Positions 4,351-58,899 of a stretch of DNA of 64,000 nt are shown here, one piece after another. Position 1 is the first letter of the stretch, and each line of letters starts with the position of its first letter. Made by a program: the position numbers and the translations under genes. Origin of the DNA: Candidatus Omnitrophica bacterium UBA6215 (GTDB lineage: Bacteria > Omnitrophota > Gorgyraeia > Pluralincolimonadales > Pluralincolimonadaceae); assembly GCA_002421665.1 (NCBI GenBank), contig DISH01000006.1:84879-148878 (forward strand). The letters run 5' to 3'. The notes under the pieces are model-generated. The model was given only the letters and a program-made list of their open reading frames with translations, was not told the origin of the DNA and ran no database searches.

Positions 4351-4407
4351 GTATTTTCCTTATGGGGATTTGATTATAACAGAAAGCCTCCGGCGAAGGC
4401 AAGCAAA

Positions 4408-37113: not shown

Positions 37114-37437
37114 CTATTCTTTGAGCTTTACAGCCGTTCCATAAGCATATACATAACCGCTGTAATTGAAGTAATTGATACCTATTACATAATCGGCTCC
37201 AAGGTCCCTCGCAGTATCCTTTAACTTGTCGTTAAGGCCGTCGAGATTCACCTCTCCTCCGCGAGCCGAGATTATCCCTATTACTTTATATGATTCCTTC
37301 AGGTCCCCAGTGGTAAGGACTATCTCTTTCTGTTTGCCGCTGGAACCCTTATTCTTGGGCATCACCTGGGCATCAATAGTCGAAACCAATACCAGCGCAG
37401 CCAGAACGGTCGCAACTATAAATATATTACGTTTCAT
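37114..37437 (-). CDS. Small secreted YbjQ/DUF74-like protein, last gene of the pilus-like cluster
   Basis: A signal peptide is followed by LGADYVIGINY...YAYGTAVKL, which resembles the YbjQ family core. It overlaps the secretin stop by 4 bp. Confidence 0.4.
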   Translation of the reverse strand: MKRNIFIVATVLAALVLVSTIDAQVMPKNKGSSGKQKEIVLTTGDLKESYKVIGIISARGGEVNLDGLNDKLKDTARDLGADYVIGINYFNYSGYVYAYGTAVKLKE

Positions 37438-38558
37438 AGTACCGGTTCTCCTCTGGAATCAAGTACCGTAGCCGTGAGGAATATCAAAAGGTTCTTCTTC
37501 GCACTGGTACTGTGATGGGTCTTGAAAAGGTCCCCTACCAGCGGGATATCTCCCAGTACGGGCACCTTTCTCTTCGTGACATCCTCAGTCTCCCTGATAA
37601 GGCCGCCGATAACGACGGTCTCTCCGCTCTTAAGTACGACAGATGTCTGTGTGGTCCTGGTATCTATTACTGGATAGCCCAGCCCGTCGGGGAACTCAGC
37701 CGCGGCAGAGATGGGCACCTGGTCGACCAGAACGCTCACTTCCGGATGTATATCCATGGTGATTATCTTGTTGTCGCCTGAAACGGTAGGAGTTACCTCA
37801 AGCATGATCCCTGTAACCTTTTCGGCAACCTTATATACCTCGACCATGATAGGCCTGCCGGTAGTACCAATATTCGTCCTCGTGAAATCGGAAGCATAGG
37901 GTACTATATTGGCAAGCTGTATGTTGGCCATCTGCCCGGAAAGCGTAGTTACCGTAGGCGACGAGAGCAGGTTTAACTTGCCTTGCTCCTCGAGGGCCTT
38001 TATATGCATTCGTATCTGGTTACCTGCGGCCGTGAAAGTACCGAGTTGTAAATCCAAACCGCCAGCTTCGTTCGTAAGCCCAAATACACCTGCGAGGTCG
38101 TTATTGGCATCGCTTCTGTCCAACATTGAATTAGAAAACATACTCACGCCGGTATTGCTAAAACGGTTATTCTTCTCCGCGGAGCGGTTGGGTCTGTACC
38201 ATTCCCATTCCACTCCAAGTTCCTCGATGTCGGTAACATCTATCTCCACGAACCTGGCCTGGATCTTCACCTGGCTGGGGCCGGTGTCCCAAAGCTCAAT
38301 AAGGTCCCTGGCCAATGTCTGGTTGGTCGGGGTATCAGTTATTGTCAAAACACCGGTGATATCATCCATGACTATCTTCCTTTCCGGATTCTCCGGCAGG
38401 GCCTGCTGAAGATAGTCTTGAATATTGTCGGCCTCTCCGCCTGACGAACTTTCTCCTGCCCCCTCGCTTTCCGCCTGGGCAAACACGTTCGATGAAACAA
38501 AGAAGGCGAAGGCTGTTAAAATCGTTGCAAATATCAAAACCCGTCCGGTCATCTTCAT
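37434..38558 (-). CDS. Short secretin (N-domain plus secretin domain), paralog 2
   Basis: It has a signal peptide, an N3-like domain IQARFVEIDV, and the secretin C-domain motif KVPVLGDIPLVGDLFKT...KKNLLIFLTATV. Confidence 0.7.
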   Translation of the reverse strand: MKMTGRVLIFATILTAFAFFVSSNVFAQAESEGAGESSSGGEADNIQDYLQQALPENPERKIVMDDITGVLTITDTPTNQTLARDLIELWDTGPSQVKIQARFVEIDVTDIEELGVEWEWYRPNRSAEKNNRFSNTGVSMFSNSMLDRSDANNDLAGVFGLTNEAGGLDLQLGTFTAAGNQIRMHIKALEEQGKLNLLSSPTVTTLSGQMANIQLANIVPYASDFTRTNIGTTGRPIMVEVYKVAEKVTGIMLEVTPTVSGDNKIITMDIHPEVSVLVDQVPISAAAEFPDGLGYPVIDTRTTQTSVVLKSGETVVIGGLIRETEDVTKRKVPVLGDIPLVGDLFKTHHSTSAKKNLLIFLTATVLDSRGEPVL

Positions 38559-39649
38559 CTTACTGCCTCCCCTCTGGCATTGATGATGCTCGCCGTGATG
38601 AAAATAAGGAGGTTCTTCTTGCGCTGGTTCTTATAATCATATTGGAACGCCTTGCCCAGGACAGGAATATCTCCCAGTACGGGTACCTTCATCTTAGTTA
38701 TAGTCTCTTCGTCCTTTATCATGCCGCCTAACACTATCGTTTGTCCGCTGTCAACAACAACACTCGTCTGGGCGGTCCTTACATCCACAACCGGCCAACC
38801 TAACGAATCAGGGATCAGCGGCACGGCATCTGTCGCGGTGACGTTTCCAAGCTGCCCGGTCTCACCGCTCGTGGTCAACGTGGATATGCTTACCTGGTCC
38901 TTAAGGATACTTACCTCGGGATGCAGGTCTAGGGTTATGGTATTGGAGCCTTCGGTCACATAGGGAGTAGCCTCAAGGAATATCCCTATGGGTTTCTCGG
39001 CCAATGTAAGTTTATAGCTCCATATAGGATCTTCTGCCGTACCTATATTCTCAAGGGTAAAATCCGACACATAGGGCTGTGTCCTTACAACCTGGATATT
39101 GGCCATCTGTCCCGCGATCGTGGTGATCTTGGGTGAAGACAAAAGGTTGGCTTTGCCCTGTTCGGCCAACGCTCTAAGATTGGCAACAAAATAATCGCCG
39201 CCCTCCAGGATCTTAAAGAGCAGCAACTGGCTGGCATAACCACCGGAAAGCGGGAACGTACCTCCCGTAGCGGTATCCCAGACAACCTGTCCCGGTCCTA
39301 CCCTACTACCCCTGAGACCCTTATTGCTGGGGTGGCCTTCGTGCATCTCATAATATTCTACGCCAAGTTCCCAGAGATCGGTGACATCGACTTCGACAAA
39401 CCTTGTCTCTATCATGACCTGTTTAGGCCCGACCTCGTACTGCTTAATAAGGTCCTTTATGAGAGATTGGTTCGTCTTCGTGTCGGTCACTGTAAGGAGC
39501 TTCGTGGCCTGGTTGTATGTTATTTTCCTGCCGTCCTGCGGCGGCAGGCTGTTCTGGAGATACTCAGCAATGGTAAGATCTTCCGAAAACGCGATAAAGG
39601 GAAGCCCCAAGAGGGAAACGACCGCTAGAATAAGGAGATTTTTTCTCAT
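38555..39649 (-). CDS. Short secretin (N-domain plus secretin domain), paralog 1
   Basis: It has a signal peptide, the N-domain LLTVTDTKTNQSLIKDLIKQYEVGPKQVMIETRFVEV, and the secretin motif KVPVLGDIPVLGKAFQY...KKNLLIFITASI. Confidence 0.7.
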   Translation of the reverse strand: MRKNLLILAVVSLLGLPFIAFSEDLTIAEYLQNSLPPQDGRKITYNQATKLLTVTDTKTNQSLIKDLIKQYEVGPKQVMIETRFVEVDVTDLWELGVEYYEMHEGHPSNKGLRGSRVGPGQVVWDTATGGTFPLSGGYASQLLLFKILEGGDYFVANLRALAEQGKANLLSSPKITTIAGQMANIQVVRTQPYVSDFTLENIGTAEDPIWSYKLTLAEKPIGIFLEATPYVTEGSNTITLDLHPEVSILKDQVSISTLTTSGETGQLGNVTATDAVPLIPDSLGWPVVDVRTAQTSVVVDSGQTIVLGGMIKDEETITKMKVPVLGDIPVLGKAFQYDYKNQRKKNLLIFITASIINARGEAVR

Positions 39650-39651
39650 GT

Positions 39652-40767
39652 CTATTCCTGTTTGGTCTCGAATTCCTTCAGTTTAACTTCCCTGGTCTTG
39701 CGTTCCGGATATTTGAGCTTGTAGGTCCTGGTTACCAAGTCTTCTCTCTGTATTACGGATTTGCTTGATACGTAGACATAATTCGGTTCTACTTTATATG
39801 CTAATTGCGTTGTCTTGAAAGCTATGTCCAATACATCAAGAAGGGGCATGGGAGTAGCCGTGCTCAAGGAAATCTTTATGGGGCTGTCTTTCGTAAGGTT
39901 TGCAAGCTCCCTTTCGTCGACAACAATTGTAACGCCCGTCATCTCCATCAACTGTCGGATCAAGTCCTGTATATCCGCATCGGTTACTGAAATCGCCGGA
40001 ACCATTACGCTGCGCATCTTGTCGACCAGGGCCTTTTTCGCTTCCTGTTCAGCTCTTTCGGCCTCAGATATAACTTCTTCTATCTGAACCTCTTCTTTAG
40101 CCGGAGGCGTAGGAGGCAACCAGCTCCTGTCTACGTCCCGCAGCGAAGCCTGTTCCGCGGTTTCCTTTTCCTCGCTTATGACCTGTCTATCTTTTATTAT
40201 ATCCTTGCGCTCCGCAAGCGTAGATTTTTCCCTGAGATAATAGTTTTCGGCTTTCTGGGCCTTCTCAAGCCAAAGGCGGGCTTCCGAATCATTCGGATTT
40301 GCCGCAAGAGCAGTCTCAAAATCGCTTACTGCCGCGGAATACTGTTTATTGACATAATTAGCCTTACCTCTCTTTACCATGGAACCCGTTACCGTTCCAG
40401 GTACGTCCTTAACTATCCCTTCCTTGCATAACTCAACGTAATGGGCCGCAGACTTGTTCCTGGGATCCATCTGTACGATCTTCTCGAACATCTGCTGGGC
40501 AGTCTCGTAATTTTTGGCTTCGTATTCTTTTTTAGCTTGGTTGAAGAGGTCTGAAATAACGGTTTTCCGTTCGCTCTTCTTTTGCTTTGCGAGGTCCTGG
40601 GCTATTATCTTGGCCTCGACGGAATCATCGGAATACGCTGAAGTACTTGCTGCGCGGGCTTCGCTTCCAGAGAAATAAAACAATGAGATAATAAAGAACA
40701 AATTAAAAGTCAGGCAAATACAAAAAAACGGCAGTACCGTTCTTTTAACCCCATTGGTAATATCCAT
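39652..40767 (-). CDS. Membrane-anchored TPR protein with a C-terminal STN / secretin-N0-like domain (pilotin or MshN/PilF-like)
   Basis: It has an N-terminal TM, TPR-like repeats (AKKEYEAKNYETAQQMFEKIVQMDPRN...) and a C-terminus ISLSTATPMPLLDVLDIAFKTTQLAYKVEPNYVYVS resembling STN/N0 domains. Confidence 0.45.
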   Translation of the reverse strand: MDITNGVKRTVLPFFCICLTFNLFFIISLFYFSGSEARAASTSAYSDDSVEAKIIAQDLAKQKKSERKTVISDLFNQAKKEYEAKNYETAQQMFEKIVQMDPRNKSAAHYVELCKEGIVKDVPGTVTGSMVKRGKANYVNKQYSAAVSDFETALAANPNDSEARLWLEKAQKAENYYLREKSTLAERKDIIKDRQVISEEKETAEQASLRDVDRSWLPPTPPAKEEVQIEEVISEAERAEQEAKKALVDKMRSVMVPAISVTDADIQDLIRQLMEMTGVTIVVDERELANLTKDSPIKISLSTATPMPLLDVLDIAFKTTQLAYKVEPNYVYVSSKSVIQREDLVTRTYKLKYPERKTREVKLKEFETKQE

Positions 40768-40772
40768 TTATA

Positions 40773-41450
40773 TCATCTCCCCTTGTTAATAACCCACTCT
40801 TGATTTTGGCCGTATAATACCACACTACCCGGCTTTATGTCAAGAACTTTATAACCGTTGTACTCCTCGCCCTTCTTGACTTCGAATGTCTTGTCGTTCA
40901 TTGAGTCATATAATTTAGCTATAAGCTCTTTACTTTTAACGGGTTTCTTGTACTCAAGGATGAGCTGGCCGTCTCTGTTTTCTGCCTTGATCAGTTTGGA
41001 GTTTATTTCCAAAATTTTGTAATCCTTAAACTTTTCCCCCTTCTTAGCAAAATATGTCTTACCCGACCAGTTGATCTGCCCTATCATGGTCCCATCCTGC
41101 TTCTGGATGAAGCCGTTATACATAAAAGGCAGATTGTTCGCTCCTATGGAAACGACCTTAAGCTTTTCCGGGCTGAACTGCTCGGGGGGCGCTTCCGGTT
41201 TGATAAAAATATTCCTGTCGAACAAAGGCTTATATCTCGATATCGCGAACGGTGAATTAATACCGTCGATAAGCGCGGCATATTTGTCGGTTGTATCCGC
41301 GACTTCACTGTCCTGGGCTTTCTGCGTTCCGGCCTTCTCCTCTATTAAAACATCTGATCCTTCAGGCGCAAAGAGGGATGATCCCCTCCAAAGAAAGACG
41401 AGCCATATCGCAAACAGGATCATAGTTGCTATTTTATAAACGTCCTTCAT
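40773..41450 (-). CDS. Bitopic membrane protein, putative PilP/GspC-like assembly component
   Basis: It has an N-terminal TM and a beta-rich periplasmic region. The call is based on its position between the PilO-like gene and the secretins, with no strong motif. Confidence 0.3.
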   Translation of the reverse strand: MKDVYKIATMILFAIWLVFLWRGSSLFAPEGSDVLIEEKAGTQKAQDSEVADTTDKYAALIDGINSPFAISRYKPLFDRNIFIKPEAPPEQFSPEKLKVVSIGANNLPFMYNGFIQKQDGTMIGQINWSGKTYFAKKGEKFKDYKILEINSKLIKAENRDGQLILEYKKPVKSKELIAKLYDSMNDKTFEVKKGEEYNGYKVLDIKPGSVVLYGQNQEWVINKGR

Positions 41451-42211
41451 TTCTTCTCCTGTTGCTGTACGGCAGCCACTATTATCATTTCAACCTTAAG
41501 CGCGCCCTTTTCGCCCATATCTTCATTTACTGTCTTTGCTTTTATCATCTCTATTCTGAACGGTATCCCCGCAGAATACAATTTATACATAAAATTCACG
41601 AGGTTATCGCTCTTGCATTCGAATGAAATCCTGACCGGGAAATTCCTGAACAGAGGGTCTTTCTCGCCTTCAAGAACGACCACTTTGGATTCCAGGAACT
41701 CTACGGATGAGACTTCGGGTATCTTGGACTGCAGCATAAGGTCGATGATCTCGGCGATTATATCCAGCTGCTTGACCCTTACCGGAAGGTCCGCCGGTGC
41801 GGGGATATCATGCTCATACCGCTCAAACCCCAGCCAGAACGGGAATTGGAAATCAATAGGAGCGCCTTTATCCTTTATATTCTTTTGGACCCTGTAAAGC
41901 TCTTCCTTGAATTTCAAGGCATCGCCGACATCCTTTGGCATCTGCGCAACAGGTTTGGAGAAGAGCCCCTTGCTCATGCGCTCGTTCACGCTGTTAAGGG
42001 AACCCATCTGCCTTTCCAGTCTAAGCCTTTCCCTGTTGAGGTTGCCGAGCCCTTCGCTCCTGAAGTTATCCAGTTCTCCGGTCTTGCCTTCTATGGACCT
42101 CTTCAAGGAAATCCTGTCCAGCCCAACTAAAACGGCTATGCCTAGGGAAATCAAGAAAAGCACTCCCAGTGCAATTTTTGTCATTATATGGGACTTTATC
42201 CCGTTAGCCAT
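41447..42211 (-). CDS. PilO/GspM-like bitopic membrane protein
   Basis: It has an N-terminal TM, then a coiled coil, then an alpha/beta domain. It sits immediately downstream of the PilM-PilN fusion. Confidence 0.4.
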   Translation of the reverse strand: MANGIKSHIMTKIALGVLFLISLGIAVLVGLDRISLKRSIEGKTGELDNFRSEGLGNLNRERLRLERQMGSLNSVNERMSKGLFSKPVAQMPKDVGDALKFKEELYRVQKNIKDKGAPIDFQFPFWLGFERYEHDIPAPADLPVRVKQLDIIAEIIDLMLQSKIPEVSSVEFLESKVVVLEGEKDPLFRNFPVRISFECKSDNLVNFMYKLYSAGIPFRIEMIKAKTVNEDMGEKGALKVEMIIVAAVQQQEKK

Positions 42212-42213
42212 TC

Positions 42214-43851
42214 TTATTTTTTGTCCTTATCAGAATCCAGCGGTTCCGATAGCATCCCGCGCGCTTTAAGCTTGAACTTTATGGAAAAATCCCTTATCTG
42301 CCCCATGCCCTCTTCGTCGTCTTTCGGGAGACTCGCGTAAATTATATCTACACTTTCAAAGAAAGGGGATTCCGCCAGTTTGTTCTTGAAATCCGTGATA
42401 GCGGTCAGGTTCTCGGAGGTCCTGCCTTCTATAGTTACCCAATCTTTCTCCATACCAAACGAAGTAAGCCATGTCTCTTTCGGAAGGAGTTTTTCGACCT
42501 CAAGGAAAGACTCCAGCAAAAGCGATCTTCTGGCTGCTATATTCTCAAGCGGTTTTATGCTTAACTCGCCTTTCTTTATGCTATCCTTAAGGGATGCGAT
42601 CTTGGTCTTGACTCCCTCATACTGAGATAACATTTCATCCAGGAAGGATATCTGTTTTCTTAAGGCTCCCGACTGGAACCATATGTTCATTGCTATGGTG
42701 AAGGGAATGAGGGCGAGCATGATCCCAGCCGATATTATCCATATTCTCTCTTTCTTGAAGTCCCTCTCCTCTTTCCTCTCTATCGGCAGCAGGTCTATAT
42801 TTGTCGGGCATCTCTGAAGCACCCGCAGACCAAGGCCGATAGCCGCTCCGAACCTTGACTGGAAATCTATATCCACCCTGAGGTTGGAAGGACACTTTAT
42901 CTTCTGGCCGAGGTTAGCGCGCCTGATCTGCATGCCCAGGCTCTTCGACAGGAAATCCTCAATACCTTTTAGCTTAGAACCGCCTCCGGATAGTATCACT
43001 TCGCCGAAAACCGTATTCTTACCGTGTTTCGTTTTGTAAAATTCAAGCGACTGTACTATAGAGGAGACCATATCGGAAACGACGGAGTTGAGGATACCGG
43101 AGAGATCTTTTCCGGTTGAACTTACATTGGAGGGCATCAGACCGTCCGATGGGACAACCATGCCTTCTTTCCTTTTAAGTTCCTCCGCCTTGTCAAAAGG
43201 CATGTTAAGTTTGGTGGCGATAGCATGTGTCATCTCGTCACCGGCTATAAGCACGGAACGAACCCAAAACCCTTTGTCCTCAACGACTATAAGGTTTGTG
43301 GCCTTAGCGCCGATATCTATTATTATACCCTTGGATATGGGTTCATTGAACGTTATCGCGTTAAGCAGGGAGAGCGGGCTTACATCAACGGAATCTATAG
43401 CAAGGCCTGTCCTGGAAAAATTCGCGAGGGTAGATTCAACCAGTTCTTTTTTTGCGGCAACGAACAGGACATCCTCTTCCGGCCCTGAACTGCTGCGGAA
43501 TATCTGGTGGTCCCAGGTGATCTTATCGAGAGGGAACGGGACCTGTTGCTGGGCCTCGTATTTTATTATTTTGCCTATTTTGCCTTTTTGTATTTTGGGG
43601 AGCTTCAGGAACCTTATGAAGACGGACTGCCCGGAGAGGGATATGGCGGTATTCCCGCCGCGTATCTTTTCTGTTTTCAGGAGACCTTCCAGACCTTCCC
43701 TTATAAGGGCTTCCCTTTTGTCCTGGTCGGAATGCTGGGTAAGGTCAAAAAACTTCGCCCGAAGGAGTTGAAAACCTTCAGCTGTCTTTTCAAGCTCTAT
43801 AAGCTTGACTGAGCCTGCGCCTATATCGATACCGAGAGCACGTTTTCCCAT
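42214..43851 (-). CDS. PilM-PilN fusion protein (actin-like ATPase domain fused to a PilN/GspL-like TM segment)
   Basis: It has the N-terminal PilM-like motif LGIDIGAGSVKLIEL. The central region has the PilN/GspL hallmark NIDLLP followed by a TM helix and a coiled coil. Confidence 0.7.
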   Translation of the reverse strand: MGKRALGIDIGAGSVKLIELEKTAEGFQLLRAKFFDLTQHSDQDKREALIREGLEGLLKTEKIRGGNTAISLSGQSVFIRFLKLPKIQKGKIGKIIKYEAQQQVPFPLDKITWDHQIFRSSSGPEEDVLFVAAKKELVESTLANFSRTGLAIDSVDVSPLSLLNAITFNEPISKGIIIDIGAKATNLIVVEDKGFWVRSVLIAGDEMTHAIATKLNMPFDKAEELKRKEGMVVPSDGLMPSNVSSTGKDLSGILNSVVSDMVSSIVQSLEFYKTKHGKNTVFGEVILSGGGSKLKGIEDFLSKSLGMQIRRANLGQKIKCPSNLRVDIDFQSRFGAAIGLGLRVLQRCPTNIDLLPIERKEERDFKKERIWIISAGIMLALIPFTIAMNIWFQSGALRKQISFLDEMLSQYEGVKTKIASLKDSIKKGELSIKPLENIAARRSLLLESFLEVEKLLPKETWLTSFGMEKDWVTIEGRTSENLTAITDFKNKLAESPFFESVDIIYASLPKDDEEGMGQIRDFSIKFKLKARGMLSEPLDSDKDKK

Positions 43852-43894
43852 ATGGCTTGCGTATTATTCTATAAAATTAATCCCGGGTTGTCAA

Positions 43895-45088
43895 TTATTT
43901 TCGCGCGCGCTCTAATCTTTGGCACTCTACCATATTTTCGAAGGAATCTTGTTTGATCTGCCCGTCCTTTGAAAAATCATTGGCGATCGAAAAACAAAAA
44001 TAGGCCGTCTTTGCCTTTTCGCCTTTCTCCGGCTGTTTAAGCCTCCCTGCCTTCTTCAGGAGGTCTTCTCCCTGTTTGAAGTACCGGCCGCTCAAGTCGC
44101 TTATATATGACTGGTCCTGCATCCTTAACATATAACCTGTTATGAGAGCATGGCGGGCATCGCTGGAAGGTTCGGGTCTTGTATCAAAAAACCTCTTAAT
44201 GGCGTCCCGGGCTTTCGAATCCGCCATCTTCCTGACCTGCCCTCCGGATGAAGCAGCAACAATATCGTAACATGCGACCGCAGCGATGTAATAGCCGCTC
44301 TTCCTGTCCTTGTCAACTTCTTCGGCGCGCTCTTCGTAATCTATCCCCCTGTTGATGCACTTAATAAAATATGCCTGCTTGCATTCATCCGTATCCATGT
44401 GGGAAAGGACCGATTGCATCTCCTCGGCGGCAAAAACTATTTCAGGCGGCTCCTGTAAATTGTCAAGGATCTTCGATGCCCTGAAATTCCCCCAGATCTT
44501 AGTTATCAGGCCCCTGGACCTTCCCGCATAAGATGAATCCGGGTAAAGGGAGATCACCGACTTCGCCAACTGTTCGGCCTTATAATATTCGCCCCATTTA
44601 TATTCTGTCTCCGCTACGGCAAATAGTTTTTCGGCCTCTTTTTCCTGCACAACCGCGAGGTCCTTACCCGCTTTCTCTGCAAGTTTGGGATCCAATTCCT
44701 TCGCTATCCTGTAATGCCTGTCTGCCATTTCGAAGAGACCGTTCTCCGGGGTCGCATTGTCATAACACCATTTTGCAAGCTGGAGTTGCGCGGACGCGTC
44801 ATCCGGTTTTATACCATTGACCTTCAAAAAATATATATCCTGTTTTGTATAAAGGTCTTCTTCCCGTATGTCCGATCTTACGACGTTCTTTATCCACGCT
44901 TTCGGGAAAGTGCTTGTCCCCCCGGCCTTGAGCTTTACGGTAACATGGGTATCGCTCTCGTTCACTATCTTGCCGTCCATCTTCCCTCCTCCATCCTTCA
45001 GTTCGATAACATCGGCGGACCCGGCAGGACAAGACAATACCAGGGAAGCTGCCAGCAGGACAAGAACCGGAAAACCGCGACTCGACAT
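43895..45088 (-). CDS. Secreted hypothetical protein with TPR-like helical repeats
   Basis: It has the signal peptide MSSRGFPVLVLLAASLVLSCPAGSA. I recognised no family. Confidence 0.4.
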   Translation of the reverse strand: MSSRGFPVLVLLAASLVLSCPAGSADVIELKDGGGKMDGKIVNESDTHVTVKLKAGGTSTFPKAWIKNVVRSDIREEDLYTKQDIYFLKVNGIKPDDASAQLQLAKWCYDNATPENGLFEMADRHYRIAKELDPKLAEKAGKDLAVVQEKEAEKLFAVAETEYKWGEYYKAEQLAKSVISLYPDSSYAGRSRGLITKIWGNFRASKILDNLQEPPEIVFAAEEMQSVLSHMDTDECKQAYFIKCINRGIDYEERAEEVDKDRKSGYYIAAVACYDIVAASSGGQVRKMADSKARDAIKRFFDTRPEPSSDARHALITGYMLRMQDQSYISDLSGRYFKQGEDLLKKAGRLKQPEKGEKAKTAYFCFSIANDFSKDGQIKQDSFENMVECQRLERARK

Positions 45089-45096
45089 CTCTCCTC

Positions 45097-47610: not shown

Positions 47611-47701
47611 TGCCGCAAAAAATATACCTTATAAAAAATGTTAATTCAAGAGTAAAAAATACCCACGAGGGCATAACAGCATAAAAACATTACGTCGCAG
47701 C

Positions 47702-51453: not shown

Positions 51454-51462
51454 TCTATACCT

Positions 51463-52212
51463 CTACTGTACGCGTATGAAATCCGTAAAAGTCCTCTTCT
51501 GGCTCCCGTCGCGGCTTTGTATCGTTATTGAAACCGCTACCGCGTTGGGCAAACCATCCGGGACCTTCGCGTTGTTCCCGTCGTCATAATTCTGGCTGGG
51601 GCTTCCATCAAGGAGGTCCAGTCCGGAATTCCACTCGCTCGCCGTCGTTGCCGGAAGCCCCCCGACGGCGGACTTATAATAATATGTGAACTGCAAGTCC
51701 GTAACATTGCGCGCTATGATATCATCGGAAAAAGTCCCTGAACTGTTGTTTGAAAAATCGTATACCACCGGGACCGTGCTGCCATTAAAATATTCGAAAT
51801 GCCTCATTAGGCAGTTATCGTCACGAAGCCAGTAACCTATTTCGCACAGGTCCTGCATACCGGGGTTATCTTCAACCGGCGCCACAAGGAACAACTCATC
51901 GGCGACAGAACCGGATTTAATTATATAGGTGCCGCCCTTGTCGTTGCCCTGGAACTTTGTCCAATAGCCGGTATTATCCGATTTCTGGTAGAGTACGGCA
52001 GAGGGTATCTCCTTGCGCATAAGTTCCAGCGCGAACCTGGCATTCTGGTATATATCCAGCAATGTCTCGGATTTACGCCATGAATCGAGGGCCCCCCTGA
52101 AGACCGTGAACAGCGATAGAACAACTATAGAGAAGATAACAGAAACTACCAGTATCTCCACAAGGGTGAGTCCTGCCCTGCAGGCCTTTAAATTCTTACC
52201 TGTCCGCGACAT
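51463..52212 (-). CDS. Type IV prepilin-like minor pseudopilin (GspJ/PilW-like)
   Basis: It has a class III signal MSRTGKNLKACRAG|LTLVEILVVSVIF with Glu+5. Confidence 0.6.
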   Translation of the reverse strand: MSRTGKNLKACRAGLTLVEILVVSVIFSIVVLSLFTVFRGALDSWRKSETLLDIYQNARFALELMRKEIPSAVLYQKSDNTGYWTKFQGNDKGGTYIIKSGSVADELFLVAPVEDNPGMQDLCEIGYWLRDDNCLMRHFEYFNGSTVPVVYDFSNNSSGTFSDDIIARNVTDLQFTYYYKSAVGGLPATTASEWNSGLDLLDGSPSQNYDDGNNAKVPDGLPNAVAVSITIQSRDGSQKRTFTDFIRVQ

Positions 52213-52549
52213 TTATGGTAAAACCTCTCTGAAAACTCTTATTGCCCTGCCCCCAGCCGACAGTGCAGATCACCTGCCTTAAATTATCCACGGAGGTAGT
52301 CGAGACCGTCTGGGTCCAGGTATATGCGGGATCTGTGAACGTGCCTGAGGTAGTGCCGAGACTGGGAAAACCGTTGTTCCTTATCCGTTCAAAATGCTCG
52401 TGGGCGAATATCGTGGCCTGGGTGGCGCTTACCGACCTTCGGGCGGAATCGAAACCTATCGGGAAAAGGGACAGTATCCCCACCAGCCCTATCGCGAGGA
52501 TAGAAAGAGAGATGATTATTTCGATGAGGGTAAATCCGCTCCTCTTCAC
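52196..52549 (-). CDS. Type IV prepilin-like minor pseudopilin (GspI-like)
   Basis: It has MKRSG|FTLIEIIISLSILAIGL with Glu+5, and at 117 aa has a GspI-like size. Confidence 0.65.
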   Translation of the reverse strand: MKRSGFTLIEIIISLSILAIGLVGILSLFPIGFDSARRSVSATQATIFAHEHFERIRNNGFPSLGTTSGTFTDPAYTWTQTVSTTSVDNLRQVICTVGWGQGNKSFQRGFTINVADR

Positions 52550-52577
52550 GCTGCGCCCTCGCTTTTACCGGCCCGGC

Positions 52578-53075
52578 TTATCTGGTCCAGTTCGTTACGT
52601 TGTCCGTGCCTCCGACCACCCTGTCCGGACCATACGAAATAATATCGACGTAATAACCGCCGTGCCCTGAAGTATCGGGATTAGTATAAGTCAATGCCGT
52701 GCCCCAGGCATCGATTATCGTGCTGCCTCCGGTAAGGTCATTGTCCTTGAATGTCATATAAGGTCCCGACCAGTTGGTAGTAGGAAGCGTGTAAGTACCG
52801 GTACCTATAACATAGTTACCGGTATTGTTCACAAGGCAGTTATACAAGTTAGTATTGCCGCTTCGCGGATAACCGCCAAGATCAGCCTGGAACATCCCAA
52901 TACCGGTCTCTATCGCGGCTATCATCGCCTTTGTGCGGGCTATCATCGCCTTCTGCCTTGCGGTCTGGGCGGCCGCCGCCACCAATCCCGCCAACAGCAA
53001 TATTATAGTCATGACGACCACAAGTTCTATTATGGTGAAACCTTTCTTCCTGTTCGTCCTAACCATATTAACCAC
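52578..53075 (-). CDS. Major pseudopilin / type IV pilin (GspG-like)
   Basis: It has MVNMVRTNRKKG|FTIIELVVVMTIILLLAGLVAAAA with Glu+5, and a GspG-like length and periplasmic domain. Confidence 0.75.
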   Translation of the reverse strand: MVNMVRTNRKKGFTIIELVVVMTIILLLAGLVAAAAQTARQKAMIARTKAMIAAIETGIGMFQADLGGYPRSGNTNLYNCLVNNTGNYVIGTGTYTLPTTNWSGPYMTFKDNDLTGGSTIIDAWGTALTYTNPDTSGHGGYYVDIISYGPDRVVGGTDNVTNWTR

Positions 53076-54333
53076 CTCCTAAAGCTGTTACGAGCTGGAA
53101 GAGCGGCAAGAACATGGCTATTACTATGAACCCGACTATCATACCCAGCCCGATGATCAAAAACGGCTCTAGCAACGACATCAAACCCGTTACAGTGACA
53201 TCGACCTCTTCATCATATACATCTGCGACCTTCAACAACATCTGGTCCAAGGCACCTGTCTCCTCCCCTACGGAGATCATGTTAACGGCCATCGCCGGGA
53301 AGAGCCCTGCCTTAAGCAGGGGTTTGGCTATCGTCTCCCCTTCCCTTACCGCATCGTGTACCACCACTATGGAACGGGCCATCGCCTCATTGCCGGTAGT
53401 GTCCTTCGAGACCATAAGGGATTGCAATATAGGCACACCGCTTGACAACAGCGTTCCGAGCGTCCTGGAGAAACGGGCGATGGCAATCTTCCTTAACAAC
53501 TGGCCCATTACCGGTATCTCCAACTTACCCTTATCAATCAGAAGTTTTGTCACAGGCAAACTGTATAGGACATTCCATAGGACGATGAGTAATACTACTA
53601 AGCCTATGCCGATATACCATCTGCTCCTCGCAAAATCGCTGACCACAAGGAGGACTTTGGTCATTACCGGAAGTTCTACGTTCATTTCTTTGAATATCTG
53701 CAAAAATTTGGGGACGATAAACGTTATAAGAAAACCCAGTACCGATAGAGCCATGGTAAGAACGAGGGCGGGATAGACCATGGCCGATTTTATCCTTCCC
53801 TCCAATCTTTGGGATTTTTCGGCAAACTCCGCAAGACGGGTAAGTACCACTTCGAGCACACCGCCGGCTTCACCCGCCTTTACCGTATTTACATACAGGG
53901 GCGGGAACGCCTTGGGGAATTTTGAAAGCGCTTCGGAAAAAGAGCTGCCGCCTTCAACCTGCTCGGCAAGCCCGCGGATAGTAGTCTTCAATATCCCCGA
54001 CTTCTCTTGCCTTTCAAGGACATACAAGGCGCGGACAAGGGGCAGACCGGAACCTATAAGGGTAGCCAGCTGCCTGGTAAACACGGTTATCTGCTTGGCG
54101 CTGACACCTCCGAAAGACAGGCTTAAAGCTGATTTCGCCGGCTTGGGGCCGCCGGGTATCTCCCTGTTCCTTAAGGGAGATCCGTCATTTTTATCCTTCT
54201 CTTCATTGATACTTATGGGATAAAGGCCCTTCTGGCGCATCTGCTCCATGGCATCCTGATTGCCGGAAGCCTCGAGCCTGCCTTTACTCTCCTTGCCGTC
54301 CTTGTCTATAGCGACGTAATTGAAGATGGCCAT
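53068..54333 (-). CDS. Inner-membrane platform protein GspF/PilC family
   Basis: It has two T2SF repeats and three TM helices. A strong RBS GGGGGAG precedes the ATG. Confidence 0.85.
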   Translation of the reverse strand: MAIFNYVAIDKDGKESKGRLEASGNQDAMEQMRQKGLYPISINEEKDKNDGSPLRNREIPGGPKPAKSALSLSFGGVSAKQITVFTRQLATLIGSGLPLVRALYVLERQEKSGILKTTIRGLAEQVEGGSSFSEALSKFPKAFPPLYVNTVKAGEAGGVLEVVLTRLAEFAEKSQRLEGRIKSAMVYPALVLTMALSVLGFLITFIVPKFLQIFKEMNVELPVMTKVLLVVSDFARSRWYIGIGLVVLLIVLWNVLYSLPVTKLLIDKGKLEIPVMGQLLRKIAIARFSRTLGTLLSSGVPILQSLMVSKDTTGNEAMARSIVVVHDAVREGETIAKPLLKAGLFPAMAVNMISVGEETGALDQMLLKVADVYDEEVDVTVTGLMSLLEPFLIIGLGMIVGFIVIAMFLPLFQLVTALGGG

Positions 54334-54361
54334 TAATTTTATCTCCCCCTTCTATATTATA

Positions 54362-54390
54362 AATATACCTTATACAAAGGTCTTTGTCAA
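54362..54390 (-). promoter_or_regulatory. Possible internal sigma70-like promoter TTGACA-N17-TATATT upstream of the GspF gene
   Basis: On the minus strand the sequence reads TTGACAaagacctttgtataaggTATATT and lies in the 69-nt gap between the ATPase and platform genes. Confidence 0.25.
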
Positions 54391-54402
54391 AGGCTCAAAA
54401 AA

Positions 54403-56154
54403 CTACATTACGGAAGATTGAGCCTCCTTTAGCACCTCTTCTGCGGTTGTGACCCCGGCGTTTATCTTTTCCAGGCCGTCGTCCAGGAGCGTCTTCATGC
54501 CGTTCTCAATAGCAGCTTTCTTTATAAGGGCTGTATGCGCCTTTTCTATCACAAGCTGCCTTATCTTCTCGTTCAATACAAGGAGTTCGTATATACCCGT
54601 CCTGCCTTTGTAACCCGAATTGTTGCATTTCACGCAACCTGTGCCCCTGTAAAATTTCCTGTTTTTCGCTTCTTCGGGCGCCAGCCCCAGGTCGGATATC
54701 AGTTCGGGTTCCGGGATATACTCTTCCTTGCAGTTCTGGCATATCTTGCGCACAAGCCTCTGGGCGAGCACCGCTTCAAGCGTGGAAGTCACGAGAAATG
54801 GCTCGACGCCCATATCGATCAACCTCGTGATGGTTCCTGCTGCGTCGTTGGTATGCAACGTAGAGAAGACCAAATGTCCGGTAAGGGAAGCCTGTATCGC
54901 TATCTGTGCGGTCTCGGCATCCCTTATCTCGCCTACCATTATTATATCGGGATCCTGCCTTAATATATGGCGAAGGGACGTGGCGAATGTAAGGCCTATC
55001 TTAGCATTTATCGGGACCTGTATTACACCCTTAAGGTCGTACTCAACAGGATCCTCGGTCGTGATAACTTTATATTCTATTTTGTTTATCTCCCTCATGC
55101 ATCCATATAATGTAGTGGTCTTGCCGCAACCGGTCGGCCCGGTAGTAAGGAATATGCCGTTGGGTTTGACTATTATGCTCCTTATCCTCTTCTTGGTTTC
55201 ATCGAGCATCCCGACCTCGTCTATGGAAAGGCTTACCGTCGTCCTGTCGAGGACCCTCATGACGATGCTCTCACCGAATATCGTAGGCAAAGTAGATATA
55301 CGCAGGTCCACGCTCTTGCCTTCTATCGTGACCATGATGCGCCCGTCCTGCGGAAGGCGGCGCTCGGCTATATCAAGGTTCGCCATGACCTTTATCCTGG
55401 ATGACAGGCCGAGGCTAAGGTTCTTCGGAGGCCTGGCTACCTCGTAAAGGACGCCGTCCACCCTGTACCTTATCCTGTAATCTTGTTCGAAAGGCTCGAA
55501 ATGTATGTCGGATGCCTTCTCCCTGACCCCCTGGAGAAGTATCATATTAAGGAGCTTGATTACGGGGGCGCGTGAAGCAAGCTCCTGGAGTGTAGCTATG
55601 TCATTTATCTCTTCTCCCTCAGGGACAAGCTCCATCTTCTCGCCAAAGACGCCGAGGACGTCCTGTATCGTCTCGCCCTCGGAACCGTAATACCTCTGTA
55701 TCTGCTCCTTTATCTCCTCGTCGCTGGCAACCACACCCTTTATGTTCATCCCGAGGGTAAACCTCAGGTCGTCAAAAGCGGCTACATTTAGCGGGTCCGC
55801 TATGGCTATCGAAAGCTGGTTGCCTTCAACAGAAACCGGGAGGATGGTATATATCTTCGCAACGGAAGCCGGGACCTTGTCAATGACCTCCTTAGGGATC
55901 TTCATGTCCTTGAGCCTGACCACAGAGAACCCGGACCGCGCCCCCAGCAGCTGCAGGATATCGTCTTCCTTGACGATACCCATATCGACGAATATCCTTC
56001 CTAGAAGCTTGCCGGTAAGCTTCTGCTCTTCCAGAGCCTGCTCGAGCTGGCGTTCGTTTATCATCCCCTTCTCAAGGAGAAGCTGGCCTATCCGCTTGTA
56101 TTTTTCCTGTTTAGGTTGCTCTTTTTCGGCAGCCATACCTATATTACTCCTCAT
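54403..56154 (-). CDS. GspE/PilB-family secretion ATPase 2 with an N-terminal MshEN-type domain
   Basis: It has the Walker A motif TGPTGCGKTTTLY and a tetracysteine CQNC...CVKC. Its N-terminal RIGQLLLEKGMINERQLEQALEEQ matches the 24-residue MshEN c-di-GMP-binding consensus. Confidence 0.9.
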   Translation of the reverse strand: MRSNIGMAAEKEQPKQEKYKRIGQLLLEKGMINERQLEQALEEQKLTGKLLGRIFVDMGIVKEDDILQLLGARSGFSVVRLKDMKIPKEVIDKVPASVAKIYTILPVSVEGNQLSIAIADPLNVAAFDDLRFTLGMNIKGVVASDEEIKEQIQRYYGSEGETIQDVLGVFGEKMELVPEGEEINDIATLQELASRAPVIKLLNMILLQGVREKASDIHFEPFEQDYRIRYRVDGVLYEVARPPKNLSLGLSSRIKVMANLDIAERRLPQDGRIMVTIEGKSVDLRISTLPTIFGESIVMRVLDRTTVSLSIDEVGMLDETKKRIRSIIVKPNGIFLTTGPTGCGKTTTLYGCMREINKIEYKVITTEDPVEYDLKGVIQVPINAKIGLTFATSLRHILRQDPDIIMVGEIRDAETAQIAIQASLTGHLVFSTLHTNDAAGTITRLIDMGVEPFLVTSTLEAVLAQRLVRKICQNCKEEYIPEPELISDLGLAPEEAKNRKFYRGTGCVKCNNSGYKGRTGIYELLVLNEKIRQLVIEKAHTALIKKAAIENGMKTLLDDGLEKINAGVTTAEEVLKEAQSSVM

Positions 56155-57856
56155 AGCCGTGCGTGATGCGCACGACCTCAGAAATCGTCGTTATGCCTTC
56201 CCTTACCTTATTAAGGCCGTCTTCCCTCAGGAGCTTCATGCCGCTGCGGCGAGCGGCTTCCCTTATCTCCTGCGAAGAAAGCCTTTTTACTATCATCTCG
56301 CGTATCTCGTCATTATTGACCAGCAGCTCAAATATTCCGATCCTTCCTTTGTATCCGGTATAATTACACATTTTGCATCCTTTACCCCTGAACAGCTGCA
56401 TTTCTTCGACGGCCTTCGGGTCGCCGGACTTCTGTCCCAGGAGATACAATTCTTCGTAGGAAGGTTTATAGGGCTCCTTGCAGTTCTGGCATATCTTGCG
56501 CACAAGCCTCTGGGCCATGACCGCCTGGACCGTAGAGCTGACGAGATATGACTTTACACCCATATCTATGAGCCGGGTAAATGCGCCGGCGGCATCGTTG
56601 GTATGCAGAGTACTGAAAAGAAGATGCCCCGTAAGGGCAGCCTGTATGGCTATAGACGCGGTCTCAAAATCACGGATCTCGCCGACCATTATTACATCGG
56701 GCGCCTGCCTGAGCATGGTCCTTAATCCCGAGGCGAAGGTGAGTCCTATCGAGGGCCGTACATGGACCTGATTTATGCCCGAGATCTGGTACTCGACCGG
56801 GTCTTCTACCGTTATAAGTTTTTTATTGGGTTTATTTATATAGCTAAGGGCCGCATAAAGCGTCGTTGTCTTTCCGCTTCCGGTAGGGCCCGTAATAAGC
56901 AACATGCCGTACGGCAGGTGTATCAGTTTCTCGAAAGTCTCTGCATCCTCATGGAGGAACCCGAGCTCGGCAAGGCCAAGCATAAAACTGGACTTATCGA
57001 GGATCCTCATGACCACGCTCTCCCCGTATATAGCCGGAAGCGTGGAGACGCGCAGGTCAAGGTCCTTGCCCATGCCTTGTATCCTTATCCTGCCGTCCTG
57101 CGGCAGGCGCTTCTCGGCTATATTCATGCCCGCCATGATCTTAAGACGGCTCAATATGGAAGGTTGCAGCTGTTTCGGGGGGCCGGGAACTTCGTGCAAT
57201 ACGCCGTCTATCCTGTACCTCACGCGGAACTTGTCTTCAAGCGGCTCAACATGTATATCGGAAGCGCGGTTCTTTACGGCTTCGGATATTATCTGGGTAA
57301 CAAGCTTTATTATGGGCGCTTCATCCTTTTCTTCTTCTTTCACGACTTCAGCCGCGACGCCTTTAAAAGATACCGTCGCGTTGTCGTCCTGTTTCTGCGC
57401 AACGGCATCCAGTATGTTCTTGCTTCCTCCGTAATGTTTCTCAAGCGCTATGTTTATGTTCGATTCGGAGCTAAAAACAAAATCGATCTTCGAGCCTATA
57501 AACGTTTCAAGGTTGTCCTGGGCCAGAAGGTTAATGGGATCATCCGTTGCAATGGTCAGGATATCATTCTCGAATTTGATGGGAACCAACTTGTGGCGGT
57601 ATGCTAATGCCGGTTTTACCTTGGAAAGGATATCGAAGGGGATTTCCATATCGAATATAGGGGCGCGGACAAGGGAAAACTCCTGGATTATAAGATCTCT
57701 GAGCTGTTCGGTCTGGAGGAACCCTATGCCGTTGAGGATATCGGAAAGACGGTTTCCGGAATCAAGCTGCGATTTCAGGACACTCTTTAATTGGGATTCG
57801 TCAAGTATCCCTATCGACTTGAGGTATTCGCCTATAAGCCTGCTTCTATTGATCAA
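56144..57856 (-). CDS. GspE/PilB-family secretion ATPase 1 with an N-terminal MshEN-like domain
   Basis: It has the Walker A motif TGPTGSGKTTTLY and a tetracysteine CQNC...CKMC. It starts at a TTG preceded by the RBS AAGGGGGAGAG. Its N-terminal RLIGEYLKSIGILDESQLKSVLKSQ resembles the MshEN motif with one inserted residue. Confidence 0.9.
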   Translation of the reverse strand: MINRSRLIGEYLKSIGILDESQLKSVLKSQLDSGNRLSDILNGIGFLQTEQLRDLIIQEFSLVRAPIFDMEIPFDILSKVKPALAYRHKLVPIKFENDILTIATDDPINLLAQDNLETFIGSKIDFVFSSESNINIALEKHYGGSKNILDAVAQKQDDNATVSFKGVAAEVVKEEEKDEAPIIKLVTQIISEAVKNRASDIHVEPLEDKFRVRYRIDGVLHEVPGPPKQLQPSILSRLKIMAGMNIAEKRLPQDGRIRIQGMGKDLDLRVSTLPAIYGESVVMRILDKSSFMLGLAELGFLHEDAETFEKLIHLPYGMLLITGPTGSGKTTTLYAALSYINKPNKKLITVEDPVEYQISGINQVHVRPSIGLTFASGLRTMLRQAPDVIMVGEIRDFETASIAIQAALTGHLLFSTLHTNDAAGAFTRLIDMGVKSYLVSSTVQAVMAQRLVRKICQNCKEPYKPSYEELYLLGQKSGDPKAVEEMQLFRGKGCKMCNYTGYKGRIGIFELLVNNDEIREMIVKRLSSQEIREAARRSGMKLLREDGLNKVREGITTISEVVRITHGYEE

Positions 57857-57887
57857 AGCCCGACTCTCTCCCCCTTATATTTCACGA

Positions 57888-57905
57888 GCGCCGCGGACGC
57901 GGCGC
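57888..57905. promoter_or_regulatory. Perfect GC-rich inverted repeat GCGCCGCG-GA-CGCGGCGC in the leader of the pilus ATPase operon (candidate operator)
   Basis: It is an 8-bp perfect palindrome with a 2-nt spacer, about 30 nt upstream of the ATPase-1 RBS and just downstream of the HTH-TM gene. No U-tract follows it. Confidence 0.3.
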
Positions 57906-57995
57906 AATCACCATGCTCCGGAGAAACAGTTTTCACCTTGTCCTCAAACAACCCAAGCTTTACCCTTATATTACCACATTTTGTATTTACTTCAA

Positions 57996-58391
57996 CTATT
58001 TCCTGGTAATAATGAACACCGTCAAAAGCACTATCAGGATAAAGACGAGGATATAGAAATCGTTCAGATAAACAAAATCCCTGACTTTATCGAAAAGCGA
58101 ATACCTTTGCCTGCTTTCGGGCTCACTCGTCGGGGAGAGATGGTAGATGGGGACGGACTGGTGTTTTAGCACCTTAAGGCGGCTCTTAAGGGCCGCGACC
58201 TGCCCCTTCCTGAGCCTTACGAACTCCCCTCCTATCCTGTAGGCCGGGATCTTGCCTTCGGCCACAAAAGACTTTACATCTTCCTCGTCCAACTCGAGTA
58301 TGCTTGCAGCTTCCTCGATGGTTATAAGCCTTTCGCGGTCGCTTTTCCCGTCCGGAGCTCTATTTAATTCTCTCCGAGCTGATCCATTCAT
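57996..58391 (-). CDS. Membrane-anchored HTH (excisionase/MerR-type HTH_17-like) DNA-binding protein
   Basis: It has LITIEEAASILELDEEDVKSFVAEGKIPAYRIGGEFVRL (helix-turn-helix) and a C-terminal TM helix FYILVFILIVLLTVFII. Confidence 0.5.
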   Translation of the reverse strand: MNGSARRELNRAPDGKSDRERLITIEEAASILELDEEDVKSFVAEGKIPAYRIGGEFVRLRKGQVAALKSRLKVLKHQSVPIYHLSPTSEPESRQRYSLFDKVRDFVYLNDFYILVFILIVLLTVFIITRK

Positions 58392-58899
58392 CTATTTTCG
58401 CTTTGTCAAAATGAAGTTTATCGCCTTCCCTGATAGACGGAAGTTTTCCGTTAGACGCCCAATCCGACACGACGGAGACATCCACTTCCAGATACCTGGC
58501 GACCTCATCCGTATCCATCAACTGCGCTCCGGATTGGGAAACGCTCTTTATCCCGGAAGTCATCTGGCAGTTCCCGTTCAAGACGGAACCCTTGCCCACC
58601 TCAAGGAGGGGAGTGCGTATATTGCCGTCCACCCTGGCTGGTGAAATAAGCTTCAGGGATTTCTTCGCGATCACTTCGCCCGTTACCCGGCCGGCTATCG
58701 TGATCTCGTCACCGGTTATATTGGCATTGACGAAAGCCTTCTCTCCTATGGTCAAAGTCCCCTTCGTGTCCAGGGTACCTTCGAACCTGCCGTTTATCTG
58801 CAGGTTCACGGGGTCTTTGAACGACATGGTGCCTTGCATGCTGGCGTCTACGTCCAATACCTTCTCTTCCACCTTCTTGTTCTTGCCTATCATCGCCAA
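58360..58899 (-). CDS. Bactofilin fused to a C-terminal HTH_17-like DNA-binding domain
   Basis: It has the bactofilin beta-helical repeats ...DGNIRTPLLEVGKGSVLNGNCQMT (cf. BacM ...GNIHTPRLTIEEGAVFNGNIRM). The C-terminus reads DTDEVARYLEVDVSVVSDWASNGKLPSIREGDKLHF. Confidence 0.65.
   Translation of the reverse strand: MAMIGKNKKVEEKVLDVDASMQGTMSFKDPVNLQINGRFEGTLDTKGTLTIGEKAFVNANITGDEITIAGRVTGEVIAKKSLKLISPARVDGNIRTPLLEVGKGSVLNGNCQMTSGIKSVSQSGAQLMDTDEVARYLEVDVSVVSDWASNGKLPSIREGDKLHFDKAKIDEWISSERIK

Follow-up and report, generated by a model that had tools for sequence, protein, structure and literature searches.

The closest described relatives of the locus presented here are the type IVa pilus (T4aP) of Myxococcus, Pseudomonas and Geobacter, the type II secretion system (T2SS), the mannose-sensitive haemagglutinin (MSHA) pilus of Vibrio and the 'type IV pili' cluster Amuc_1098–Amuc_1102 of Akkermansia muciniphila (PMC5332112, PMC10688800). 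The locus lies in a stretch of 64 000 nucleotides from Candidatus Omnitrophica bacterium UBA6215 (GenBank assembly GCA_002421665.1, contig DISH01000006.1, positions 84 879–148 878 of the forward strand), hereafter called the window. According to the list of open reading frames (ORFs) and their translations, the region 37114–58899 is a dense array of 19 ORFs, all encoded on the minus strand. The components were identified by Pfam and NCBIfam profile scans, and family profiles were searched against the PDB. Omnitrophota are uncultured bacteria, most of them ultra-small, for which a life in attachment to other cells is assumed. A survey with TXSScan called T4aP in 135 of 141 Velamenicoccia genomes and in most other Omnitrophota, calls that may include the present locus; T4aP expression in Ca. 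Velamenicoccus archaeovorus and the inferred host-attached lifestyles of Omnitrophota were described in the same work (PMC10066038).

The locus is a PVC/Omnitrophota branch (PVC, Planctomycetota–Verrucomicrobiota–Chlamydiota) of the type IV filament superfamily, which has been annotated in surveys and never dissected. It does not belong strictly to the T4aP, T2SS or MSHA systems, or to the equivalogs of Amuc_1098–1101. With moderate confidence, we regard it as a filament machine typical of the Omnitrophota lineage, which would build an adhesive pilus gated by cyclic di-GMP (c-di-GMP) and carrying interchangeable glycan-binding tips for attachment to a host or surface. This core-genome locus offers concrete candidates for attachment, namely lectin-bearing tip pilins and a motor predicted to be gated by c-di-GMP. 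An initial annotation, made from the letters alone, had listed these genes as one co-oriented cluster; they are present on the minus strand at the coordinates given there, and the profile scans agree with the domain contents. It also took the system for an unrecognized, atypical one-off, which is not the case: the same gene order is conserved beside polA across Omnitrophota and related phyla. The locus is therefore widespread; it is described only loosely, and its specific features are unreported.

Comparison with described systems and distribution of the locus

The locus shares with the T4aP its PilB-like ATPases, a PilC-type platform, a secretin and homologues of the alignment proteins PilM, PilN and PilO, the first two in one chain. 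Homologous loci of other Omnitrophota also carry PilT. The filament is different: it is of the GspG/I/J/K type, and the T4aP major pilin PilA and the FimU/PilVWX/PilY1 set are not found at the locus. PilM and PilN form a fusion, PilB occurs as two paralogues, and the locus of this clade has no PilT and no PilD, the prepilin peptidase being absent from the whole 64-kb window. Finally, the secretin is split and duplicated, with a TPR N-terminus in place of the AMIN domains.

From the T2SS, the GspE ATPase and the GspG major pseudopilin with its GspI/J/K tip are recognizable. There are no matches to the GspC, GspL, GspM and GspO families, and no GspH is encoded in the main locus. The K proteins are three times the size of GspK and contain lectin modules, and the secretins are far below the GspD cutoff and have no N0–N3 array in one chain. 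The MSHA system of Vibrio resembles the locus in its c-di-GMP-binding MshEN ATPase (matched here by the second ATPase), in the TPR protein beside the secretin, in the very large protein encoded after the minor pilins and in the lack of a prepilin peptidase gene. However, the secretins are below the MshL cutoff, no MshM-like ATPase is present, the TPR repeats occur only as part of the secretin N-terminus, and the giant proteins are K-type pilins, whereas MshQ is not a pilin.

The back half of the locus has the order of the Akkermansia cluster and is homologous to it. The gene product MN corresponds to Amuc_1101, O to Amuc_1100, and the TPR protein and secretin together to Amuc_1098, with P standing in the position of Amuc_1099. 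The relationship is distant, as no score comes near its equivalog cutoff, and Amuc_1098 is a single chain of 805 aa whereas three genes are found here. In the Akkermansia literature, Amuc_1100 is an outer-membrane pilus protein; its homologue in this locus looks like an inner-membrane, PilO-type assembly protein. This comparison would place Amuc_1100 as a PilO-type assembly protein in a machine common to PVC-related phyla.

The initial description of a mosaic of T2SS and type IV pilus traits thus remains appropriate. The filament genes are of T2SS type, the ATPases are nearest to T4aP PilB structures, and the inner-membrane module is of PilM–PilN/PilO type. Such a mosaic in a deep-branching group bears on the origin of secretion systems from pili.

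The distribution of the locus was established by a scan of one genome per species, seeded by a PilMN alignment; a broad alignment of 17 sequences was too divergent for this purpose, and a narrower one was used. The scan identified 266 related stretches, the best 80 of which were annotated with iterated hidden Markov models (HMMs) built from the window proteins; individual loci are referred to by L numbers. MN was called in 76 of them. Of the 73 loci having downstream sequence, 65 have O after MN, and P is kept after O in 50. Among the 76 loci with MN, a secretin is found downstream in 62, polA just downstream in 28, and a K-type protein of at least 600 aa upstream in 25.

The order E-E-F-G-I-J-K...PilMN-O-P-secretin-polA recurs in Omnitrophota and is also met with in Auribacterota, UBP3, Planctomycetota and Verrucomicrobiota. 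Such a system cannot be called an orphan, nor is it rare. Homologues of the PilMN fusion at 60–98% identity are nearly all labelled Candidatus Omnitrophota, and exact copies of the K2 protein are present on a 206-kb JGI metagenome contig and in several other assemblies. Two loci of Verrucomicrobiota (L065 and L066) form a bridge to the Akkermansia cluster, sharing the upstream F-G-I-J-K genes and the downstream polA. The first of these has the order F-G-...-I-J-K(1010 aa)-MN-O-P-secretin-polA, and its proteins match the Amuc_1101, Amuc_1100 and Amuc_1098 families as well as Verru_Chthon A and C. The shared order and the homology to Amuc_1101 and Amuc_1100 therefore indicate that the locus is old, has been inherited vertically and belongs to the core genome of PVC-related phyla.

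Some further observations were made on these loci. In the 28 loci with polA, which come from several phyla, this gene (34349–37015 in the window) adjoins the secretin genes on their downstream side, an unusually stable neighbourhood without obvious functional reason. The chromosomes of Ca. Uabimicrobium (L068 and L074), a planctomycete with phagocytosis-like predation, carry a PilMN-O-secretin module of the same family. Several metagenome-assembled genomes (MAGs), including L006 and L008, have a PilMN 85–98% identical to that of the window and bear the label 'uncultured Planctomycetia bacterium', probably through automated mislabelling. The 'T2SS-like locus next to giant genes' of Omnitrophota (West-Roberts 2023) was considered and found to be a different locus: it is of Tad/RcpC type, and the window contains no giant gene.

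Motor, envelope module and split secretin

Two assembly ATPases of PilB/GspE type, E1 (56144–57856; T2SSE 478.6 bits, MshEN 53.6 bits) and E2 (54403–56154; T2SSE 473.6 bits, MshEN 74.7 bits), are 46% identical. Catalytic motifs are intact in both, namely Walker A and B, the His box and the tetracysteine formed by a pair of CxxC motifs. Their affinity was judged by comparison of HMM and PDB scores. The closest solved structures are the T4aP PilB proteins of Geobacter and Myxococcus (500–566 bits), with GspE/EpsE at 426–437 bits; the top PDB match of E1 is Geobacter PilB (507.7 bits), and E2 reaches 566 bits with PilB. Both pass the NCBIfam equivalog cutoff for GspE of 630.25 (E1 633.5, E2 654.6) and are just under that for PilB of 675.65 (E1 634.4, E2 644.5).

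The two ATPases differ in their c-di-GMP-binding motif. With the model NF053729 (cutoff 38), E2 scores 63.7, in agreement with an intact tandem MshEN motif, and E1, in which the motif is degenerate, scores 27.3. This difference holds in the orthologues of both proteins. The E1 and E2 orthogroups are separate even in loci whose PilMN is only about 25–35% identical to that of the window, and the duplication is therefore old. On the basis of these sequences, the pair appears to be subfunctionalized, with only E2 keeping the motif, an arrangement that appears undescribed.

Six relatives (L025, L032, L035, L042, L049 and L063) have a gene of the PilT/PilU family between E1 and E2, scoring 444–446 bits against a cutoff of 319 (for example, L032:3513–4574). 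The clade of the window has no PilT at this place, E1 being directly followed by E2, and the gene is also missing between them in L030, L033 and L045. The inner-membrane platform F (53068–54333) was correctly called GspF: it matches Pfam T2SSF with 199.9 bits in two repeats and NCBIfam GspF with 411.9 (cutoff 424).

The envelope module begins with MN (42214–43851; PilM_2 120.5 bits, PilN 36.2 bits), an end-to-end PilM–PilN fusion. Its score against NCBIfam Amuc_1101_fam (278.8 bits, E=1e-82; equivalog cutoff 650) makes it a clear homologue, not an equivalog. The PilN segment 'NIDLLP' is kept at the invariant positions L354 and P356. The domain layout is that of GspL, though the sequence is of PilM type. 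O (41447–42211), a bitopic protein, had been called PilO-like, and this is now backed by its family profile (A5), which matches Amuc_1100 (6lad/6kny, E=7e-10) and PilO (3jc8_O, E=1.5e-5; 2rjz, E=0.005) in the PDB; as a single sequence, it scores 27 bits against the Amuc_1100 family (cutoff 180). The next gene encodes P (40773–41450), a bitopic protein placed after O in the slot of PilP, GspC or Amuc_1099. The name 'PilP-like' given to it reflects no more than this position; an identification as PilP or GspC was abandoned, as Pfam and PDB profile searches gave no support for it.

The secretin is encoded by three genes in this clade. TPRN0 (39652–40767), initially described as a TPR-STN protein, does carry TPR repeats (residues 70–180) and weak N0/STN matches; it is in fact the detached N-terminal half of the secretin. 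It aligns to residues ~73–398 of the single-chain secretins of 630–790 aa found in relatives, and matches positions 159–370 of Amuc_1098. The two short secretins of the initial annotation, D1 (38555–39649; Pfam Secretin 131.1 bits) and D2 (37434–38558; 148.4 bits), have 364 and 374 aa, respectively, and are 46% identical. D1 consists of a signal peptide, Secretin_N and Secretin; D2, its paralogue, likewise has its own signal peptide, and both align to residues ~380–780 of the single-chain secretins. Since the three genes cover the fused secretin in parts, and D1 and D2 have their own signal peptides, the secretin is truly split and not frameshifted. D1 and D2 form distinct orthogroups in about 20 Omnitrophota loci, down to 31–37% PilMN identity; both copies have therefore long been retained.

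The secretins are below the cutoffs of all the subfamily models compared. D1 and D2 score 127 and 170 in the split chain with the PilQ model (cutoff 284), 160 and 179 with the GspD equivalog (cutoff 351), and 142 and 155 with the MshL model (cutoff 250). Over the three genes, the Amuc_1098 model gives 46, 141 and 126 (cutoff 750).

The last gene of the cluster encodes Y107 (37114–37437), a small secreted protein of 107 aa. The proposed YbjQ likeness amounts to a sub-threshold match (18.9 bits, cutoff 23), and DUF1471 is likewise matched only below threshold. Among the best 80 loci, Y107 is present in 22, all in or near the class with split D1 and D2, and is absent where the secretin is fused. 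This three-gene secretin with a co-occurring small protein appears undescribed, and it offers a natural experiment in which a secretin is split into separate ring and pore subunits.

Tandem secretins of another kind, both full-length (~660–820 aa), are found in eight loci of Auribacterota, UBP3 and unclassified MAGs (L034, L039, L041, L046, L050, L057, L063 and L075). D1 and D2 give equal scores with the tandem full-length secretins of other phyla, a result that points to duplications of separate origin. In four of the eight loci (L034, L039, L046 and L075), a third large protein of 668–687 aa, without secretin match, is encoded after the tandem pair.

Tip pilins and their partner genes

The prepilins G, I and J have a G followed by F/LTxxE and the Glu5 residue, visible in their translations, as originally noted. 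G (52578–53075) is a major pilin or pseudopilin of GspG type, matching Pfam T2SSG with 40.4 bits (cutoff 21) and N_methyl with 30.4 bits; C-terminally, its translation shows the GspG-type pattern DAWG...GH..YDI.S.G.D..GG.D..NW. The minor pilin I (52196–52549) is GspI/PilV-like in size and position, with sub-cutoff scores for NCBIfam PilV (37.2 bits), XpsI (32.4 bits) and GspI (28.3 bits). Its family profile found no GspI structure in the PDB and matched N-terminal helices only; assignment to GspI by this route was dropped. J (51463–52212) is GspJ-like, its family profile (A7) matching EpsJ (2ret_B, E=6.3e-6) in the globular domain.

The two largest proteins of the locus are K1 (48598–51453, 951 aa), with PA14 and ConA-like lectin modules, and K2 (45097–47610, 837 aa), with ConA-like modules of lectin/glucanase fold. 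Both had been called GspK-like; they have a GspK-like N-terminus and lack Glu5, as is typical of GspK. Their AlphaFold models are confident (pLDDT 87.4 and pTM 0.84 for K2; pLDDT 79.4 for K1) and match GspK/XcpX; the inserted modules have lectin or PA14 folds. In either K family, conservation is among the highest at the very C-terminus.

A tip pilin of K type needs a terminal beta-strand. GspK provides this strand in cis, and so does CpaL of Caulobacter, a protein of 600 aa whose middle region is dispensable (PMC13533445). The conserved C-termini of K1 and K2 fit this in-cis model. They also resemble CpaL in their build, starting with a minor-pilin domain, continuing with a large middle part and having at the very C-terminus a conserved segment that probably completes the pilin beta-sheet. 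ComZ of Thermus is built in the same way, with a minor-pilin domain at the N-terminus, a large middle and a C-terminus that completes the pilin sheet in cis. Unlike CpaL and ComZ, the K proteins have PA14 and ConA-like lectin inserts, are larger, very likely occur in at least five copies and are each followed by a dedicated partner gene.

In the window, K1 is followed by BH (47702–48601), a secreted right-handed beta-helix protein (Pfam Beta_helix 31.7 bits, cutoff 25.9; signal peptide), and K2 by X397 (43895–45088), a secreted TPR protein, both as initially annotated. The profile of X397 (A8) matches TPR proteins such as BamD (E=3e-6); its match to PilF is not significant (E=0.015), and the lipobox Cys is not conserved among homologues, so that a PilF/Tgl-type pilotin was rejected. 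The pairing of K with BH recurs in L013–L016 and L019. Many Omnitrophota have a single K-BH or K-X397 pair, and the clade of the window has both in tandem. In L008 and L011, K and X397 have been duplicated together. In L019, a protein of 384 aa (3864–5018) matches both the N-terminal 'DVIxLKDGG' region of X397 and the beta-helix partner; judging from this sequence, an N-terminal module may be common to both types of partner.

A satellite cassette in which the K-X397 unit is also duplicated was found at L086:8319–22411 (ENA ERZ27315056 k141_1183271, 351,934 bp). It encodes, in order, a GspH-like protein, I, J, K (949 aa, with PA14), two X397-like proteins, K (1041 aa), an X397-like protein and K (1027 aa), and lacks genes for an ATPase, a platform and a secretin. 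Very likely, it belongs to the same genome as the window, which would very likely give this genome at least five giant K pilins. The cassette lies directly after a complete rRNA operon (L086:3003–8177; 16S, two tRNAs, 23S and 5S).

Several known systems have comparable tip genes. Myxococcus xanthus has multiple minor-pilin/PilY1 clusters that serve as alternative priming complexes. The likeness lies in several interchangeable tip cassettes for one machine; the partners here are beta-helix or TPR proteins and not PilY1. The Verru_Chthon cassette (TIGR02598–02600) resembles the satellite H-I-J-K cassette, which lies apart from the core genes. I, J and K match Verru_Chthon B, C and A, respectively, over the N-terminal 40–66 residues only, with 21–28 bits against cutoffs of 51–332. 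Lectin-bearing tip pilins of GspK fold, arranged in cassettes with a partner gene, appear undescribed. A search for a diversity-generating retroelement or template repeats aimed at the K lectin modules found only the repeat formed by the E1 and E2 paralogues.

Proposed mechanism, alternatives and neighbouring genes

The pilus proposed here would be assembled as follows. The prepilins G, I, J, K1 and K2 would be processed by a peptidase encoded elsewhere. One K, together with I and J, would form a tip initiation complex like that of the homologous GspI-J-K, with K, which lacks Glu5, at the apex of the filament. The extreme C-terminus of K probably returns as the last beta-strand of the pilin, exposing the PA14 and ConA-like modules. 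Two hexameric ATPases of PilB type, acting on the PilC/GspF platform, would polymerize the GspG-type subunit beneath this tip; E2 would be gated by c-di-GMP through MshEN, E1 having lost the motif. The PilM–PilN fusion, the PilO homologue and P would connect the platform to the outer-membrane pore, which in this clade would be encoded by TPRN0, D1 and D2 together with the small protein Y107. K1 with its beta-helix partner and K2 with its TPR partner may be alternative tip cassettes, to which the satellite cassette would add three K genes. Such a pilus would attach the cell to glycans of a host, a prey or a surface. Its retraction is uncertain because the PilT gene of other Omnitrophota loci is missing from the locus of this clade.

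A lectin-bearing tip pilus fits the host-attached lifestyle inferred for Omnitrophota (PMC10066038), and the presence of a GGDEF ORF 5 kb from the cluster also favours this reading. Several points weigh against it. The locus and its close homologues are known from genes alone. The filament genes are of T2SS type, G passing the Pfam T2SSG cutoff and the ATPases those for GspE and not PilB, and the 64-kb window has neither PilT nor a prepilin peptidase. That the C-terminal strand of K returns to the pilin domain is an inference of ours; lectin-like and GH16-like folds are no proof of sugar binding and might have a catalytic function. For P, homology to PilP or GspC was not detected, and the upstream HTH genes are at most candidate regulators of the cluster; in relatives, larB/larC-like genes intervene before E1.

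A more far-reaching version, which we put forward tentatively and ourselves find somewhat doubtful, is that the pore is the first split, hetero-oligomeric secretin, made of TPR-N0, co-assembling D1 and D2, and Y107, and that at least five swappable tips, each a K with its partner, set which host or prey glycans are gripped. If this is true, the K tips would decide which glycans can be gripped by an ultra-small and probably host-dependent bacterium.

The best of the alternatives, which we consider unlikely, is a machine resembling the T2SS, in which a short periplasmic GspG pseudopilus capped by I-J-K would push folded exoproteins through the secretin, the candidate substrates being the co-encoded beta-helix protein or glycan-degrading enzymes. 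The cutoffs passed by G and the two ATPases fit this alternative, as do the likeness of I, J and K to GspI, GspJ and GspK and the order E-F-G-I-J-K-(L-like MN)-(M-like O)-D, which matches the T2SS pattern. The locus is also without PilT, and the PilM–PilN fusion has the domain layout of GspL. Yet PilM_2, PilN and PilO are matched where GspC, GspL and GspM are undetected, the secretin scores of 160–179 are far from the GspD cutoff, and homologous loci do have PilT. K proteins of 837–951 aa with several lectin modules would seem too bulky for a periplasmic cap, and at least five K paralogues with their partners resemble a repertoire of adhesins, not parts of a piston. The TXSScan calls of T4aP in Omnitrophota would point in the same direction if they include this locus.

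The three tandem pairs of paralogues (ATPase, K and secretin) pointed out in the initial annotation are real, and they could reflect two machines that have F, G, I, J, MN, O and P in common; one would use, for instance, E1, D1 and one K, and the other E2, D2 and the second K. The two could differ as pores or as filament types, each with its own control. We consider this improbable. The difference between E1 and E2 in the c-di-GMP motif and the retention of D1 and D2 as separate orthogroups would agree with it, but the duplications differ in age and distribution. The E1/E2 pair is present beside a single fused secretin and a single K in L035, L042 and L049, D1/D2 are found in about 20 loci, and two K genes are present in the main locus in only five. 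The E1/E2 duplication is the oldest, D1/D2 is intermediate and K1/K2 is recent. These different distributions rule out a single coordinated doubling of E, K and D; moreover, neither E is tied to any one D or K.

A DNA-uptake (competence) pilus, with K as tip DNA receptor like Thermus ComZ, is very improbable: the helix-hairpin-helix segment of the K2 family profile matches ComEA (8dfk, E=1.2e-6), several K homologues carry PF12836 and the locus is persistently beside polA, but the alpha-domain of GspK (3ci0_K) also aligns with this segment, which is therefore a feature of the fold and not evidence of DNA binding, the additional K modules are lectin or PA14 folds, and no ComEC, ComEA or DprA is encoded in the 64-kb window.

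Upstream of E1, the initial annotation had a single regulator with HTH and transmembrane (TM) segments. Both features are present; they belong to two overlapping ORFs and not to one gene. The first (58360–58899, 179 aa) encodes a protein with bactofilin (Pfam, 82.3 bits) and HTH_17 (38.6 bits) domains. The second (57996–58391, 131 aa) encodes an HTH_17 protein (29.1 bits) with a C-terminal TM helix, its C-terminus being hydrophobic in the translation. Both genes are also found upstream of E1 in the relatives L087 and L088, where LarB-like (AIRC) and LarC-like (Ni_insertion) genes lie between them and E1 (L087:1659–3631 and L088:1704–3643); the window has a gap of 139 bp at this place. The bactofilin gene is a conserved upstream neighbour, whose membership in the system is uncertain. 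In Myxococcus, a bactofilin helps to place PilB and PilT at the pole, and by analogy a positioning role could be considered for the bactofilin–HTH_17 protein.

The remainder of the window consists of housekeeping genes, including polA, glgA, rho, prfA, murA, tsaD and gatB. The initial statement that the window contains no prepilin peptidase, GspH or GspC was upheld, and PilT and further pilins were likewise not found elsewhere in the 64 kb. Scans for promoters and terminators that might mark operon boundaries gave counts at chance level, and no c-di-GMP or other riboswitch was matched by Rfam in the window. The GGDEF diguanylate cyclase domain is encoded by an ORF of 172 aa at 31854–32372, at a distance of ~5 kb on the downstream side of the cluster; no ORF is called in the 577 bp preceding it, and the gene may be longer or degraded. 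An ORF of 739 aa without Pfam match is located at 20340–22559. GH2 enzymes have been reported to recur near secretion and giant-gene loci of Omnitrophota, and a secreted protein of 446 aa with a GH2 TIM-barrel match is encoded at 23433–24773.

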